Virus record (IMG/VR): IMGVR_UViG_2698536401_000001
DNA from: a virus
Taxonomy: Duplodnaviria; Heunggongvirae; Uroviricota; Caudoviricetes
Strand: one strand, 5' to 3'
Length of the DNA stretch: 22,996 bases
Shown: in pieces, positions 1,695 through 7,497 of the stretch
How positions within the stretch are numbered: position 1 is the stretch's first letter
Layout of the letters: the number at the start of each line of letters is the position of its first letter
Made by a program: the position numbers and the translations under genes
The notes under the pieces: generated by a model
Told to the model about the DNA's origin: nothing
Databases searched by the model: none
Seen by the model: only the letters and a program-made list of their open reading frames with translations

Positions 1695-2890
1695 GACTCC
1701 ACCGTTATAACGATATTTTCCGGGGTACAGGACGCAGATTCGTTGTATCTGATATCAATGTTTGATGACGACAAAGCCCCCGGGGATTTCCCAATCGTCA
1801 GTTCCTGAATATCGTAATAGCGTGCATTCCCGCCACTCACCACGCCAAGATTGGCCGGTGAGTAAATGCGACTTAAAAGGACTGAATCACCAATCGTCAG
1901 ACTATTGATATAGTCGGAAATAGCCTGCTGGATCTGCTGCCCTATCTGTGAGGTATAACCCGTAAAAACTTTTAATTTAATCCGGGCATAAACAGGTACA
2001 TCACTGGAACGCGAGAATTTGATTACATGGGGATTGCCGTATTTATCCGGAACCGTAACGGATGTTGTACCGTGAGTGGCTGTCCCCTGACCTTTATTCC
2101 CTCTGATAGCCTGAGCAATATCCGTCACATCACCGCCATCCACAATTACAGCAACAGAGTGTGGTGGTAACCCGTTACCGTCCTCCGAACCAGTATCGTT
2201 TTCATAGAGTTTGTGGCGGGTTACACCGGTAACATTAGAAACAGCACCATCCAGTGCTTCAAATGGGGTTATTGATGGCAATGCAACACTTTGCGACTGG
2301 CGGATACGTAACTCCGCATCAGTTTCTGCCGGAGTGCCCACAGTAGCCGCAGCAGGATTGGTTACCGAAACCCAGCCACGGGTTGGCGTATTAATTTCAG
2401 TGATAGTTCCATCCAGCGCCGCCACTGCACCACTGACAGAACATGTTGCGGTCGCCATCACTGTACCATCCACGCCGACCACCACTGAAGCAGGCAAACG
2501 CCATATCACATTATTACTGTCTTTCACGCTGCCATTAATGATGGTTGTTCCGGCAGTTCCTGTAAGAAGCAAATCAACCGTAGAGTTCGTCGCACCTTTA
2601 CGTGAAATACCATTTATTTTCACGTTGCTGGTCAGTGCAGCCCCATAGCCGGTTGCCGGTGAAAAACAGTTGTAGACAGTTATCGCCATATTATTGGCAT
2701 CATGAATCGCCAGCGCTATCAGAGCCACCATCTGGCCGTCTTTGCTGTCCGGTTCGAGGTAGGCATCACTGCCATAAATCTGCTGAAAATAGCTAATCAG
2801 GGTGCTGAGTATCGTCTGATAATCAGGCGCACTGATCCCCTCTGCGGTTACCTTTGCAGATAAACCAAGAGAATCAAGGTTCAGAGCCAT
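1691..2890 (-). CDS. baseplate J-like protein
   Basis: 399 aa, size and position typical of baseplate J (Mu gp47 / P2 gpJ). ATGA-type overlap with the upstream gene. Confidence 0.55.
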   Translation of the reverse strand: MALNLDSLGLSAKVTAEGISAPDYQTILSTLISYFQQIYGSDAYLEPDSKDGQMVALIALAIHDANNMAITVYNCFSPATGYGAALTSNVKINGISRKGATNSTVDLLLTGTAGTTIINGSVKDSNNVIWRLPASVVVGVDGTVMATATCSVSGAVAALDGTITEINTPTRGWVSVTNPAAATVGTPAETDAELRIRQSQSVALPSITPFEALDGAVSNVTGVTRHKLYENDTGSEDGNGLPPHSVAVIVDGGDVTDIAQAIRGNKGQGTATHGTTSVTVPDKYGNPHVIKFSRSSDVPVYARIKLKVFTGYTSQIGQQIQQAISDYINSLTIGDSVLLSRIYSPANLGVVSGGNARYYDIQELTIGKSPGALSSSNIDIRYNESASCTPENIVITVES

Positions 2891-3243
2891 TACGCCTCCG
2901 ATGTAACAGTCGTTATTCCATAAAGAGTGTCGATTTCAGCGGAAAACATGACACGTCGGGTCGTGGTATCCACCGTCGTATTGAAAGAGAGGATTGATTT
3001 AACGCCCCGCGTTTCGAGGATGCGCTTACGGATCGCCAGGTTGTAGGTTTCCGGCTTCTGCTTACCGAGTACGGACTGGATCCACGGAGTCCCCTCAGTG
3101 GTGTCGAGAAACCATTGCCCATACCACAATTCGAATCGCGTTTTTACCGCCTGCGCCACGGCCTCCGGTGAGTTAATCAGCCAGGTGTCATCACCGCTGC
3201 CAAAGGTGTAATCGCCAACGGCGTCTTCACGTCTGTATCGCAT
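2890..3243 (-). CDS. baseplate assembly protein (gpW/gp25-like)
   Basis: 117 aa ORF between the spike and baseplate J genes, the canonical position of the small gpW/gp25-like wedge protein. Confidence 0.45.
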   Translation of the reverse strand: MRYRREDAVGDYTFGSGDDTWLINSPEAVAQAVKTRFELWYGQWFLDTTEGTPWIQSVLGKQKPETYNLAIRKRILETRGVKSILSFNTTVDTTTRRVMFSAEIDTLYGITTVTSEA

Positions 3244-3998
3244 CAGTTAGGCGCTCCTGTGTTACCGCCGCCGGTCTGTACTCCGCCGTGCGTGTGCGTC
3301 ATCAGGCTCTTACCACCAGCTTTTACATCGTTAGTCACCGTGACAGGGCCAAGCATCGTCGCGGTGCCGCCGCTTTCGCCCATCCCCTGAGAAAGATTCC
3401 CGTTTATTGTCACGTTGCCGTTTAGCGTGATGGTGGGTGATGTGATCGTGGTTCCTCCTTCTGCTGTCGCCGTCAGCGCGCCGGGGGTTTGAACCGTGAT
3501 GTTATGGCCTGCGGCCACTTCCACAAACGCAGCGCCATCATCAGTACGCAGTTGCGCGGCGCTGGTGCTGATTCCGCTGATTTTCTGCGCCTGCGACTGG
3601 GGACCTACAATACAAAACGCATCCGATAAATCATGCATTCTGTCATCAACAGGCTCCTGTATTCCGCCGTTCTGCCACCAGAAATCAATACAACGATCGG
3701 CAAAAATCACCAAACATTCATCACCGGCTTTAACCGGGAACGTTAGCGTGCATCCTCCGCCGCGCGGGAATACCACTGGCACATCCACCAGCAGCGGGTA
3801 ATTTTTGGTAACGCGATTGCCGTCGTTATCCGTTTCAACCGAACGGATAGAAGGCTGCACAACCGCCGTCACAGCGTCAGGATCGAATGACTGGACGATG
3901 CCAGGCAAAGCGACTCGGATCTGGTTCTTTGTTGTTTCCCGTTCAGATTTGAATGTTTCAGCAAGGTCGCCGCTGCGGGTCTGGTCAGATACTGCCAT
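3243..3998 (-). CDS. baseplate central spike protein (gpV / Mu gp45-like)
   Basis: 251 aa with Gly/Thr-rich repetitive C-terminal half (TITSPTITLNGNVTINGN...THTHGGVQTGGG) typical of spike proteins. ATG at 3996-3998 preceded by GGAG. Confidence 0.55.
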   Translation of the reverse strand: MAVSDQTRSGDLAETFKSERETTKNQIRVALPGIVQSFDPDAVTAVVQPSIRSVETDNDGNRVTKNYPLLVDVPVVFPRGGGCTLTFPVKAGDECLVIFADRCIDFWWQNGGIQEPVDDRMHDLSDAFCIVGPQSQAQKISGISTSAAQLRTDDGAAFVEVAAGHNITVQTPGALTATAEGGTTITSPTITLNGNVTINGNLSQGMGESGGTATMLGPVTVTNDVKAGGKSLMTHTHGGVQTGGGNTGAPN

Positions 3999-4010: not shown

Positions 4011-4043
4011 AGAAAGCAAAAAACCCGCCGGGTGGCGGGTTTA
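4011..4043 (-). terminator. rho-independent terminator closing the inserted cassette
   Basis: Minus-strand transcript reads UAA-ACCCGCC-ACCC-GGCGGGU-UUUUUUGCUUUCU: a 7 bp GC-rich stem (plus 4023-4029 with 4034-4040), 4 nt loop, then a U-run. It overlaps the stop codon of the 4041..4457 gene. Confidence 0.6.
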
Positions 4044-4457
4044 TGAATCGTAGGTTTTCAATTTTTCGAGTTCATCAGGAGGAAGTTCTATGAAGGTTTC
4101 CTCTGCTAATTTTATCAGCCGGGGAAGCATCGAATCAGCTTGCTGATGAGCGTTTGGGCTGATGATTGCCAATATCTGATAGTGTTCATCGATATAAAGA
4201 TGCTGAGCATATACCAAAAAATTATCACATGTCCGTTCACTCAGAGATGCTTCTGGAGGCCAGGGTTTATCGCCAGGTAGCTTTAAGTGAATTTTCCTGA
4301 TGTTGGCAGCCATCGCATCATAGTTACGTTCAAAACCGCCTAACGAACCAAAACACCAGAACTGGGAACCCTTTGAAATATAATCGGCAAGCATTTGAGC
4401 ATACTTATGTGCTGCAGCTAAATGACGCAATTCTCCCGTGATACTGACTTTTGCCAT
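4041..4457 (-). CDS. YafO-family toxin-like protein (putative ribosome-dependent mRNA interferase)
   Basis: 138 aa. Segment IRKIHLKLPGDKPWPPEASLSERTCDNFLVYAQHLYIDEHYQILAIISPNAHQQ...LIKLAEETF aligns by eye to the E. coli YafO core as I remember it (IHL, P-PP, S-RT-D, LVY-Q, DE, LAI, P-H, AE-F). ATG lies 1 nt after the upstream gene's stop. AT-rich relative to flanking genes. Confidence 0.55.
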   Translation of the reverse strand: MAKVSITGELRHLAAAHKYAQMLADYISKGSQFWCFGSLGGFERNYDAMAANIRKIHLKLPGDKPWPPEASLSERTCDNFLVYAQHLYIDEHYQILAIISPNAHQQADSMLPRLIKLAEETFIELPPDELEKLKTYDS

Positions 4458-4458
4458 G

Positions 4459-5031
4459 TCACATCCATTTAGGGGCGTCGGCTCCCAGCATCTTATGCGA
4501 TGTTGAGATCAGTTCAATCGCCTCTTCACGGGTAACATTATCTGACAAGAGTTCAGCCTGGAAAGGCTGCGATTGCCTAACTTCAGCGGCCAACTGAGTT
4601 GCAGTGTTCTCGACGGCGGTCAACGCACGAACATATTTGCGTTTTAATGGGCGCAACATTTGCAGATGGCCTTGCCACATAGGGGACCTTTCCGCTTCAG
4701 AGAACATATCCACTAAATGTCCTTTAGCATTTCGGCATGCCTTGGCAAGACCTTCGAGATGGGATAAAAACCCTTCCGGAAGCTCATCAACAATGATTCT
4801 TCCATTTCGAAAAGCTTCGAGATGAGACATGCCTTCCTTCGCGGTATTTTCGATTTCTTGAGCGCGTGCAGCAATCGCGGTACAACGACGAAATGCCTCT
4901 TCAGCATCTAATCGTTGTGGCAGTTCACAAGCATTAGAGATCAGGGGTTTGAAAGCACCGTTAACAGCTTCCTGAACCTGATTCATTTGTTGTGTAATTG
5001 TTGCCAGCGCAAATGCGTAGCTAATCGCCAT
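4459..5031 (-). CDS. hypothetical protein, upstream partner of the YafO-like gene (candidate antitoxin/regulator)
   Basis: The track ORF begins at a TTG (5037). The first in-frame ATG is 5029-5031, preceded by AGAGGGA 7 nt upstream, giving about 190 aa. Stop TGA is separated by 1 nt from the downstream ATG. No family recognised from the sequence. Confidence 0.5.
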   Translation of the reverse strand: MAISYAFALATITQQMNQVQEAVNGAFKPLISNACELPQRLDAEEAFRRCTAIAARAQEIENTAKEGMSHLEAFRNGRIIVDELPEGFLSHLEGLAKACRNAKGHLVDMFSEAERSPMWQGHLQMLRPLKRKYVRALTAVENTATQLAAEVRQSQPFQAELLSDNVTREEAIELISTSHKMLGADAPKWM

Positions 5032-5037
5032 ACCCAA

Positions 5038-5199
5038 TCCCTCTGTCGTTTTAAACGACTATACACCACTTATTCAAAGTTAGCTGAGCGCTAAAAGTTC
5101 GCAAAGTTTAGTGATCATGCAACCACCTAGCAAGCGATAAAAAATCATTATTTAGTGAATGTGAACAAACTCAACACTATGCAGAAATGTAACTTTTGG
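5038..5199 (-). promoter_or_regulatory. AT-rich intergenic region, putative promoter for the two-gene cassette
   Basis: 162 bp non-coding AT-rich spacer inside an otherwise tightly packed operon, directly upstream of the cassette. Contains a TATAGT -10-like hexamer and TTGCTA/TTGCAT -35-like hexamers on the minus strand. Exact promoter not resolved. Confidence 0.3.
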
Positions 5200-5541
5200 T
5201 TAACCAGAAACCTTTTTACACGGGAAAGAGCCGATGATTTTCGGCGCATCCATGCTGTTCTGCAGCAGTTGGACGTTCAGGAAGCGCGTTTCGGTACCCG
5301 GACGACGAATGTATTCAAAGCCGTAGTTGTTGCCGTCTTTGGCAGGCATTAGCCCCATATCAATCTTAATGCCATCAGCACCAAGATTTGTAATTTTCTG
5401 AGATGTGACGCGTTCACCGTTAATCATGTCCATTTCCCCCAACCTTGCAGTGATGGTGTAAGGTCCACAATAAGCGGTGTAACCGCTTGCAGATGCCCCA
5501 AATGACATAAAGGCAACAATTAAAATGGCTAAGGCTTTCAC
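5200..5541 (-). CDS. small Sec-exported protein with N-terminal signal peptide (moron candidate)
   Basis: 113 aa. N-terminus MKALAILIVAFMSFGASA|SGY is a classic signal peptide with an A-S-A cleavage site. Two Cys in the mature part. The start is a GTG preceded by GGGGGT, 2 nt after the hub gene stop. Confidence 0.5.
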   Translation of the reverse strand: MKALAILIVAFMSFGASASGYTAYCGPYTITARLGEMDMINGERVTSQKITNLGADGIKIDMGLMPAKDGNNYGFEYIRRPGTETRFLNVQLLQNSMDAPKIIGSFPCKKVSG

Positions 5542-5543
5542 AT

Positions 5544-6605
5544 TTACCCCCGGTTAAGCGAGTCCTGAGTGCGGAGATCCGCCGCGCCACGCGCTTCGCA
5601 CATCATATCCATGTACCACGCCAGGCCCCTTGTATCGCCAGTGTACATAATCCCGCGCACAATATAAACGCCATCCGTTGCGATGCTGGCAGGCTGCGAT
5701 GTGGTGCCGCTTAGCGTGATATTTCCATCCGTGTTCTGGTCGGTGATCTGACCACCAGCCATCGCAATATCGTTGTTCGACAAGGCGGTACGATACACGG
5801 AAGCCTGATCCAGCTGAATGAGTCCGTTAACCCGGATGTTCGGATTAATAAGCGCGCGGACGTTTACGCCGTTACCGATAGTCTGCTGCGGCATGCCAAT
5901 AAGCCCGGTAGCGCTGTTGAGCACAATCGCTTCATGAACATATTCGTTATTCTCCACCATCTGGCGTTGACCGTCCACGAATTGCCATGTTGCGCCACAT
6001 TGACCGGCTACGTTATCCATAAGATGCCGCGTCATGCCAAAGAGTACCCGCCCCCGGGGGAATACAGTAGCAGGCATTTCAGGCGTCAGGCCTTCGGTCG
6101 CGCCTTTGGCTTCGAAGTCTTTCATCAGCGCACGGTTCACATCAGCGACCGTGTAACCGGCAGCCAGCGTCTGTGAGGTTATACTGGTGGCAAAAGCCAG
6201 ATCAGTATCTGCTGCCTGAATCAGGACGTAGGTATCAACCGGACTGTCTTTTCCTGTGACCGAGTAGCGAATTTCACCGCTGAAAATCAGTCCGTAGTTG
6301 CGGCCATCTCTCTGGCCCACGTCCGCCGCGTCAACTTCCCGCACGGTCCCTACGTCGCTTGCTGACACCTCTGGCGCGACACCGTCGTAACCGGCAATCA
6401 GACGCACTTTCGAAAATTCCTGCCCGGTGATTCGGTTCACAGTATCTGCCGAGAGGTTATAAATTTTGATAGTCCCTACCCGGGACGCGCTGCTGATGTT
6501 GAACCAGTCGATCGTAAAGGTGACTTTGAAATCACTTAGCTCAATTCCCTGACCGTTCCCGTCCACAAGCTGCAGCTCGAAATGTCTCATCCAGTTCTGT
6601 GACAT
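5544..6605 (-). CDS. baseplate hub protein (P2 gpD / Mu P-like)
   Basis: 353 aa ORF at the hub position, downstream of the tape measure and two small tail genes. Call is from size and synteny. Confidence 0.45.
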   Translation of the reverse strand: MSQNWMRHFELQLVDGNGQGIELSDFKVTFTIDWFNISSASRVGTIKIYNLSADTVNRITGQEFSKVRLIAGYDGVAPEVSASDVGTVREVDAADVGQRDGRNYGLIFSGEIRYSVTGKDSPVDTYVLIQAADTDLAFATSITSQTLAAGYTVADVNRALMKDFEAKGATEGLTPEMPATVFPRGRVLFGMTRHLMDNVAGQCGATWQFVDGQRQMVENNEYVHEAIVLNSATGLIGMPQQTIGNGVNVRALINPNIRVNGLIQLDQASVYRTALSNNDIAMAGGQITDQNTDGNITLSGTTSQPASIATDGVYIVRGIMYTGDTRGLAWYMDMMCEARGAADLRTQDSLNRG

Positions 6606-6607
6606 GC

Positions 6608-6910
6608 TTACTCCGTTGATACCAGTAAATGACTGAGGCCGCCCAGATCAGTTTTCGTGGGATAATCCTGTGTGTTGTCATCGCAGACCACCACCAGCTT
6701 AAAACCAAGTCCCATACAGGCGTACTGCGCCAGCAGATCAGCGCCAGTGACGAGAGGAATACCGGAGATTACCGGCTCCCCTCTGTCGTTCTGCAGGTCC
6801 ATAATCCAGTAAGGATCGCGCCATATGATGCTAATCTGCCAAGTGACACCACCCAAGACGATGCTGAACTGCTGGTTGTCCGCTGTCAGCGGAATTTCCT
6901 GAATTGTCAT
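6608..6910 (-). CDS. tail/baseplate assembly protein
   Basis: 100 aa ORF tightly packed between tail genes. Call is from position only. Confidence 0.35.
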   Translation of the reverse strand: MTIQEIPLTADNQQFSIVLGGVTWQISIIWRDPYWIMDLQNDRGEPVISGIPLVTGADLLAQYACMGLGFKLVVVCDDNTQDYPTKTDLGGLSHLLVSTE

Positions 6911-7497
6911 TAGCCGCCTCCCAGTAATGACGCCACGTTACCCGTGATGCTTTTCAGCAGTGAAGTATCTGGAGGCTTTGTGGTTTTGTTGCCGCTATTC
7001 TGTACCGCCGACGTGCTGGCCCCTTCCTTCATGTTGGTTTTATCCGCGACGGTAATCTGCTGCGTCCGGGAGATAAGGACCTCCCTCAGGGTGAGGACGG
7101 CGGACAGGACGTTTTCGGTTGTCTTGTCCGTCGTCACTTCCAGCGCCCGGATCAACATGTTGCTGTACAGTCGTTTACCGGTTACCACATCGAAGGGGAT
7201 ACGGCTTTCCTGCAGATCCAGTAGCTCCTGATACGTCTGCTGAGGACTCAGGCCGAGCAGGCTGGTAGCCGTCAGATTACTGGCAAAAGCCAGCAATGCG
7301 CCGCCACCGGCGAAACCAACCTCCATCACCACTTCTGACGGTTTTTTATAGGCATGATCAGCGACAGCGGCCCCGACCTCTACCGGATGCTCTGTTATTT
7401 CAAGCATATCTGTATGCTTCTCTGAAATAACAACACTGGGAACAATCATTCCTATTTTTCTGCTCTGCTGATGAAAAAGTGTAGAGAGAATATCCAC
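6910..7497 (-). CDS. tail protein (post-tape-measure, distal tail/baseplate)
   Basis: 195 aa ORF immediately downstream of the tape measure gene, abutting it without a gap. Call is from position only. Confidence 0.35.
   Translation of the reverse strand: MDILSTLFHQQSRKIGMIVPSVVISEKHTDMLEITEHPVEVGAAVADHAYKKPSEVVMEVGFAGGGALLAFASNLTATSLLGLSPQQTYQELLDLQESRIPFDVVTGKRLYSNMLIRALEVTTDKTTENVLSAVLTLREVLISRTQQITVADKTNMKEGASTSAVQNSGNKTTKPPDTSLLKSITGNVASLLGGG

Follow-up and report, generated by a model that had tools for sequence, protein, structure and literature searches.

A small protein predicted to be exported occupies a polymorphic position behind the baseplate hub in contractile-tail modules of Enterobacterales

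Directly behind the baseplate hub gene of a contractile-tail module, we identified a 113-aa protein that is very probably an exported, non-virion accessory protein, encoded in a polymorphic slot that can hold unrelated exported proteins in its place. The gene lies on the minus strand at positions 5200-5541 of a 22,996-nucleotide stretch of Caudoviricetes DNA (IMG/VR record IMGVR_UViG_2698536401_000001), referred to below as the window. From sequence comparison we tentatively propose that the protein may act in the periplasm, where it would recognise or block a target in the manner of superinfection exclusion or entry interference, a role to which we give somewhat less than an even chance. The features of the window on which the analysis draws are as follows.

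2890-3243, minus strand: sheath initiator
3243-3998, minus strand: membrane-puncturing gpV-like spike (Pfam N-terminal domain and GpV Apex motif), the far boundary of the hub-spike junction
4021-4042, minus strand: terminator-like hairpin (9 pairs, 6 of them GC, with a T-run) that closes the YafO cassette
4041-5037, minus strand: variable cargo outside the conserved unit, made up of a 192-aa protein of unknown function (4459-5037) and a YafO-family toxin (4041-4457)
5038-5199, minus strand: AT-rich intergenic region (GC 0.36) 3' of the 113-aa gene, with a sigma-70-like site at 5147-5174
5200-5541, minus strand: 113-aa gene, phrog_3443 / 'STY1065/STY2022' family, with a GTG start and the stop codon (5200-5202) included
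5203-5487, minus strand: mature domain (residues 19-113), modelled as an 8-stranded beta-barrel, with C25 and C108 invariant and residues 19-39 and 76-85 variable
5488-5541, minus strand: predicted Sec (signal peptidase I) signal peptide, residues 1-18, with cleavage placed after ASA, the exact site being a prediction
5544-6605, minus strand: baseplate hub, E217 gp41-like / phrog_196 (Pfam E217_GP41, E 2.6e-5; phrog_196 'baseplate hub', E 1.3e-87)
5547-5551, minus strand: Shine-Dalgarno-like GGGGG run in the last hub codons, 5 nt before the GTG, as read from the sequence
6608-6910, minus strand: Pam3 gp18-like plug
6910-7497, minus strand: Dit-like protein
7497-9506, minus strand: tape-measure protein, a lytic transglycosylase by annotation in relatives
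21652-22974: lysis cassette of holin, endolysin and Rz-like spanin, complete and far from the 113-aa gene

The protein is a member of a catalogued but uncharacterised family. It matched phrog_3443, a PHROG of unknown function, with an E value of 2.4e-46, residues 2-112 aligning with positions 2-114 of the 115-position profile, and RefSeq gives the name 'STY1065/STY2022 family phage-derived protein' to an orthologue in E. coli TUM1880 that is 71% identical and lies at the equivalent position. As a full-length member that sits directly downstream of the hub in a SEN34-type module, it differs in no respect from the family as catalogued. A word-indexed search retrieved 393 homologues in Enterobacterales, and a second search seeded with a 31%-identical homologue from a Klebsiella phage added 68 more. 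The family is narrow, since a profile search of 1.84 billion representative proteins yielded only 64 clusters at 50% identity. Neither Pfam, NCBIfam nor PADLOC profiles gave a match, and a literature search for STY1065/STY2022 returned nothing relevant on the family.

The open reading frame listing and the sequence itself bear out the GTG start that an earlier reading of the DNA, made from the sequence alone, had placed 2 nt after the hub stop; the two nucleotides are 5542-5543, the hub frame ending at 5544. The same reading had called the gene AT-rich, which holds insofar as its GC content (0.468) is below that of the hub (0.545) and of the window (0.516), but the bias is only mild. Across the mature part of the protein the median dN/dS was ~0.14, indicating purifying selection and thus a real, functional coding gene. 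At this value, positive selection was ruled out at the whole-gene level. In the GenBank records of SEN34 (SEN34_20, 5109-5342 of locus L002) and ST340-VIM1phi10.1 (5109-5342 of locus L007), the gene is begun at an internal ATG, giving a 77-aa version that loses the signal peptide and the first cysteine; in SEN34 the full frame starts 3 nt past the hub stop, and in ST340-VIM1phi10.1 the frame and the stop overlap by 1 nt.

The N-terminus reads MKALAILIVAFMSFGASA/SGYTAYC, the slash marking the predicted cleavage; residue 2 is a lysine, the hydrophobic core is free of charges (best Kyte-Doolittle mean over 10 residues, 3.09) and A-S-A occupies -3 to -1. It therefore has the charged n-region, the hydrophobic h-region and the small -3/-1 residues (ASA/S) of a Sec/signal peptidase I substrate. 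This n/h/c layout is conserved in ~61 of 65 homologues even though the signal segment is the most variable part of the family (highest sequence entropy), the pattern expected of a cleaved signal peptide, and the export features are shared by two subfamilies that are only ~30% identical. Some distant homologues are named 'putative exported protein' or 'Secreted protein' in their source annotations. Our signal-peptide call combines the n/h/c heuristic with this conservation and these annotations; a crude signal-peptide predictor gave false positives on about half of the Dit-like proteins, and the slot-class counts reported below were therefore taken from reading the sequences. A lipobox ([LVI][ASTVI][GAS]C) is absent from the end of the signal peptide, C25 lying 7 residues past the predicted cleavage in the context TAY-C, whereas four fused relatives (L038, L051, P0194 and P0215) do carry one.

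The protein has exactly two cysteines, C25 and C108, and in an alignment of 65 sequences spanning the two subfamilies both are invariant, together with G26, N41, G74, L88 and N89. The cleavable signal peptide and the pair of cysteines on which the sequence-only reading had built its case are thus both upheld, the first by a canonical Sec layout in nearly all homologues and the second in 65 of 65, with the disulfide putative. All the sequence hallmarks of a periplasmic protein that is exported by Sec and carries a disulfide are present, and we infer that the 113-aa protein is indeed exported, cleaved and disulfide-bonded.

An AlphaFold2 model based on the 65-sequence alignment (pLDDT 85.4) has eight strands over residues 21-111 forming an 8-stranded beta-barrel, with C25 on the first strand and C108 on the last, and a detached, low-confidence N-terminal helix at residues 3-11. 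In the model the barrel is generic: its structural matches were all at 5-12% identity, and Foldseek against PDB and BFVD returned nothing significant. A profile search of PDB sequences with the family gave no match, and there was no sequence-profile match to the avidin family, whose 8-stranded barrel topology the model shares. Neither the Pfam profile nor the conserved motifs of MliC/PliC were matched, and searches against lysozyme-inhibitor and exclusion families, which had been named as the places where relatives might be found, gave no match in Pfam, NCBIfam or PADLOC; nor did the protein match known anti-phage defence or superinfection-exclusion families in PADLOC or the exclusion-annotated PHROGs. 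Profile searches of PDB, Foldseek and structure comparisons revealed no likeness in sequence or fold to a solved tail or baseplate protein, so that, as far as these comparisons reach, the earlier view of the protein as unlikely to be structural holds: a signal peptide is predicted and no virion component was matched.

We compared 166 related loci overall. Of these, 78 genome loci were fetched through hub alignment (hubs 40-95% identical); with seven phage records and the window added and short contigs removed, 81 rows were scored. In 65 of them a member of the 113-aa family is the first gene after the hub, three with a lipobox-like match, while an unrelated signal-peptide protein or lipoprotein takes that place in eight, and in five, all distant modules, the hub is followed directly by the spike; the other three rows are artefacts (a split hub, an IS-disrupted locus and a masked stretch). 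A second set comprised 80 IMG/VR contigs with hubs at least 94% identical to that of the window. Here the family was found in 68 contigs, a 241-aa lipoprotein in six and a ~153-aa signal-peptide protein in five (frameshifted in at least one and placed from gene order in two), and one contig ends before the slot can be read. Wherever it is readable, the first gene behind the hub encodes a protein that is exported by its sequence, in ~150 loci of which 133 have the 113-aa family; a few of the remaining rows are frameshifted, truncated or unreadable. Homologues directly follow the hub in all the annotated phage and prophage relatives examined, namely SEN34, Mulock, YP3, vB_EcoM-683R1, RCIP0034, ST340-VIM1phi10.1 and E. 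coli TUM1880, and the open reading frames of the unannotated Omnitron record have the same order. This position is kept at 30-97% identity while the genes between the homologue and the spike vary; in eight loci the homologue is the sole gene between them.

The coupling to the hub is equally constant. Across 65 loci the homologue starts between -26 and +19 nt from the hub stop, mostly with overlaps of 4 nt or 1 nt (start codons ATG in 45, GTG in 17 and TTG in three), and the geometry is also kept by the non-homologous proteins that replace it. Such tight, conserved coupling makes co-expression with the late tail genes, which the sequence-only reading had thought probable, a reasonable inference on geometry, and the gene would accordingly be expressed late. 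No promoter or terminator of its own was called for the 113-aa gene, both types of site flanking the YafO cassette instead. In nearly all loci a sigma-70-like match (TTTATA-N17-TAYACT) does lie ~98 nt before the start codon, and the best sigma-70-like scores in the 3' end of the hub gene average 8.6 against a background of 7.1, but the site overlaps the conserved hub peptide VYIV..YTGD and is therefore inseparable from constraint on the hub protein.

Downstream of the 113-aa gene, the YafO-family toxin (Pfam YafO_toxin, E 4e-17) is overlapped or abutted by the 192-aa protein (phrog_35514). The sigma-70-like site at 5147-5174, a consensus match only, would drive this cassette. The cassette is missing from seven of the eight phage and prophage loci compared, and the toxin together with the 192-aa gene occurs only in some E. 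coli prophages (36 of 285 matching E. coli genomes, at a coverage of at least 80%). It had been suggested that the small gene and the toxin-like cassette share one insertion point; this needs correction, the 113-aa gene being fixed after the hub and the cassette being separate, variable cargo. As the cassette has promoter-like and terminator-like sites and the 113-aa gene has neither, we regard the cassette as the moron and the 113-aa gene as the constant tenant. The cassette resembles a self-contained toxin-antitoxin-like moron whose upstream partner is not an antitoxin of the YafN type. One viral contig (L088, IMGVR_UViG_2671180676_000001), which matches the window at 100% identity in hub, small protein, spike and initiator and carries cargo of equal length, is probably the same element.

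The slot itself is modular. A ~180-aa lipoprotein N-domain ('YKKRPGW..DDC') is fused to a barrel of the 113-aa type in the four lipobox-bearing relatives, to a domain that we call X in one locus and to a domain Y in another; X also occurs alone with a signal peptide, Y also occurs in shorter lipoproteins, and the two domains have a C-x4-AYT-x6-C motif in common. A fourth type of occupant is a ~80-aa exported protein rich in Thr, Gly and Cys, with TGTTYC repeats. Examples of these alternative occupants, with coordinates in their own loci, are listed here.

L038, 7099-7989: lipoprotein N-domain fused to a 113-aa-type barrel
L051, 7075-7941: lipoprotein N-domain fused to a 113-aa-type barrel
L026, 7086-8210: lipoprotein N-domain fused to domain X
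L015, 4493-4957: domain X with a signal peptide
L034, 7068-7616: domain X with a signal peptide
L133, 5446-5907: domain X with a signal peptide
L031, 7068-8207: lipoprotein N-domain fused to domain Y
L033, 7071-7811: shorter lipoprotein with domain Y
L114, 6068-6793: shorter lipoprotein with domain Y, which is found in others as well
L074, 7032-7277: ~80-aa Thr/Gly/Cys-rich protein
L076, 4545-5535: ~80-aa Thr/Gly/Cys-rich protein and the signal-peptide proteins that follow it

None of the alternative occupants matched Pfam, NCBIfam or PHROG profiles (those of L114 and L133 were placed by homology), and those of L015 and L031 had no sequence match in the PDB. Two more signal-peptide proteins follow in a row after the ~80-aa protein of L076. 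A second, unrelated signal-peptide protein of 128 aa (MIRILLMLGMVLTSF..NA/EVK) follows the slot protein in Citrobacter phage Omnitron (L006, 5356-5742) and in an Enterobacter bugandensis prophage (L038, 8009-8395).

Variation within the family is just as marked. Among loci whose hubs are at least 94% identical, the hubs and the initiators each form a single cluster at 90% identity; the mature small protein falls into eight clusters at that threshold and the spike (3243-3998 in the window; L088-L167) into five. Twenty combinations of small-protein and spike alleles were found among 60 of these constant-hub loci (r = 0.23), and the small-protein alleles thus assort independently of the spike alleles. 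Between TUM1880 and the window, dS was 0.25 for the hub, 0.77 for the small gene, 0.98 for the spike and 0.01 for the initiator; values for the small gene and the spike so far above those of their neighbours in some genome pairs point to allele exchange of a functional gene. Within the window's subfamily, the variation is concentrated at residues 19-39 and 76-85. In Serratia aquatilis (NZ_CP173186.1; 7092-11980 of locus L055), six full-length tandem paralogues and one truncated copy extend from the hub to the spike, interrupted by an IS transposase (9959-11167), and the paralogues have nearly identical C-terminal halves and divergent N-terminal hairpins.

Outside this lineage, Pseudomonas phage E217 also has a gene in the hub-spike junction: gp42 (7595-8128 of locus L087), whose start overlaps the stop of the hub gp41 and which is followed by the spike gp43. 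The gp42 protein lacks a signal peptide and is perhaps a factor in assembly; the paper on the E217 virion does not name it among the baseplate components that it describes (PMC10329688). The hub-spike junction thus appears to be a general insertion point, with exported tenants specific to the enterobacterial lineage.

We searched for a partner of the small protein by correlating its distances with those of the other tail proteins over 51 loci. Mantel r was 0.68 for the hub, 0.61 for the N-terminal domain of the spike, 0.53 for the Dit-like protein, 0.36 for the plug, 0.20 for the initiator and 0.13 for the C-terminus of the spike; it was 0.19 for the C-terminus of the tape-measure protein (49 loci), and the hub and the whole spike correlate at 0.61. 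This pattern is what linkage to two flanking genes predicts and so singles out no target. An early comparison of TUM1880 and SEN34 had found the small protein and the spike both changed and the hub not, but the spike was rejected as a specific partner on its C-terminal r of 0.13 and on the free combination of alleles in the constant-hub loci. The lytic-transglycosylase domain of the tape-measure protein found no support as a partner either (r = 0.19). No segment of the tail module diverges more than the last 200 residues of the tape-measure protein, the part to which the lytic-transglycosylase annotation of relatives applies; the mean pairwise distance there is 0.57, against 0.26 for the first 200.

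On the reading that we favour, the 113-aa gene would be translated together with the baseplate hub, and its product would be exported by Sec, cleaved by signal peptidase I and folded in the periplasm into a disulfide-stapled 8-stranded beta-barrel. The conserved core of the barrel would serve as a scaffold, and the choice of target would lie with two variable parts, the first hairpin (residues 19-39) and the loop at 76-85. The target would be a component either of the tail tip of an incoming related phage or tailocin, or of the envelope, in the latter case one that those tails need. The family would then be the commonest tenant of a hub-coupled slot for envelope-targeted proteins in the contractile-tail modules of Enterobacterales. 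Arrays, allele classes and non-homologous replacement are typical of specificity-driven exclusion and immunity loci, and it is on this resemblance that an exclusion-type role is suggested. The weakest point of the exclusion model is timing, because a gene expressed only late would be badly placed to protect a lysogen. More speculatively, and with rather less likelihood, the hub-spike junction of SEN34-type contractile tails as a whole might be a dedicated polymorphic 'exclusion slot' for interchangeable, allele-specific entry-blocking modules. These would comprise the beta-barrel family, the two Cys-AYT-Cys types, the Thr/Gly/Cys-rich 80-mer and the fusions to a common lipoprotein anchor, and would stop related phages or tailocins from penetrating with their tail tips or from bringing in DNA.

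The same timing would suit a helper of the late cycle, made along with the tails and acting in the envelope of the dying cell on behalf of the producing phage; it might mask or alter an envelope component, in the manner of T5 Llp, and so keep released contractile virions from being lost to debris, or tune a lysis or peptidoglycan step. The hub-stop coupling, conserved in 65 loci and in the non-homologous replacements, fits a function needed when tails are made, as does the failure to find a separate promoter or terminator. We nevertheless consider such a helper unlikely, as a complete holin, endolysin and Rz-like spanin cassette is encoded elsewhere (21652-22974), receptor choice should follow the tail fibres rather than the hub-spike junction, and an array of six paralogues is hard to explain for a housekeeping role in lysis. 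A spanin or lysis role for the 113-aa protein itself was rejected on the strength of that complete cassette.

Quite unlikely, in our view, is a factor for lysogenic conversion or host fitness like lambda Bor or Lom, in which a periplasmic ligand-binding barrel would have nothing to do with phage entry. Avidin-like and calycin-like barrels often bind small ligands, and a predicted exported, non-structural protein of a temperate phage, encoded at a GC content somewhat below that of its neighbours, would suit such a factor. Against it, the independent promoter and terminator of classical morons are absent, and the 64 clusters at 50% identity are always found after the hub; confinement of the family to one position in the tail module speaks for a tie to the tail and not to host physiology.

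The protein could instead be a periplasmic inhibitor of peptidoglycan hydrolases, similar to PliC/MliC or T4 Spackle and directed against the C-terminal lytic transglycosylase of the tape-measure protein of incoming phages, but the correlation with the tape-measure C-terminus lends this no support and we consider it very unlikely. Least probable of all, and only faintly so, is a virion or assembly protein whose hydrophobic N-terminus is a membrane-insertion or assembly helix and not a cleaved signal, for although the gene is embedded between two tip genes, as is E217 gp42 with its overlapping start, gp42 has no signal peptide and is not among the E217 baseplate components described (PMC10329688), the N-terminal segment evolves fastest yet keeps the n/h/c pattern and an AXA-like site, the slot can hold lipoproteins with lipoboxes instead, five related modules have no gene in it at all, and no solved baseplate protein was matched.

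Exported accessory proteins of the late region are a known kind, and the family had already been catalogued, so that the gene alone is a modest finding. What is new is a single hub-coupled position that has an envelope-targeted protein wherever it can be read and that swaps unrelated exported domains, and, further, the allele classes of the slot in otherwise identical tail modules and its capacity to expand into a tandem array. If the slot proteins do block entry, they would explain patterns of cross-immunity among SEN34-type prophages, which are very common in E. coli, Salmonella, Klebsiella and relatives. The finding would then bear on the choice of therapeutic phages and would make available a small collection of periplasmic binders whose specificity varies naturally; if the 'exclusion slot' reading is true, superinfection exclusion would gain a new family and a new genomic logic. 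A test of the hypothesis would cost little, since different alleles are found in phages already isolated (SEN34, Mulock, YP3 and the Klebsiella RCIP phages).

Among known systems, lambda lom and bor resemble the 113-aa gene as late-region genes for exported proteins that are additional and non-essential, the slot being empty in some related modules. A moron is by definition an autonomous transcription unit, and the 113-aa gene falls outside that definition because autonomous transcription signals were not found. Unlike lom and bor, it is coupled to the hub by its geometry and lacks promoter and terminator signals, and it is the YafO cassette that fits the definition. Phage T5 Llp belongs to the exported proteins and lipoproteins of phages that block entry or mask a receptor. 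T4 Sp (Spackle) and Imm and the Cor proteins of phi80 and N15 likewise block the entry of related phages or mask the receptor (PMC11436027). All of these are without homology to the 113-aa protein, and their expression is early or comes from the prophage. For a role in blocking entry, the closest analogy in function is HK97 gp15, a moron for superinfection exclusion that lies within the tail gene cluster (Cumby et al. 2012, PMC3430355, as cited in PMC11436027). Like the 113-aa protein, gp15 is envelope-targeted, non-structural and encoded among the tail genes of a temperate enterobacterial phage; the two have no sequence similarity. Whereas gp15 sits in the inner membrane and is transcribed from a unit of its own, the 113-aa product is predicted to be a soluble periplasmic barrel, encoded by a gene for which no promoter or terminator was called.
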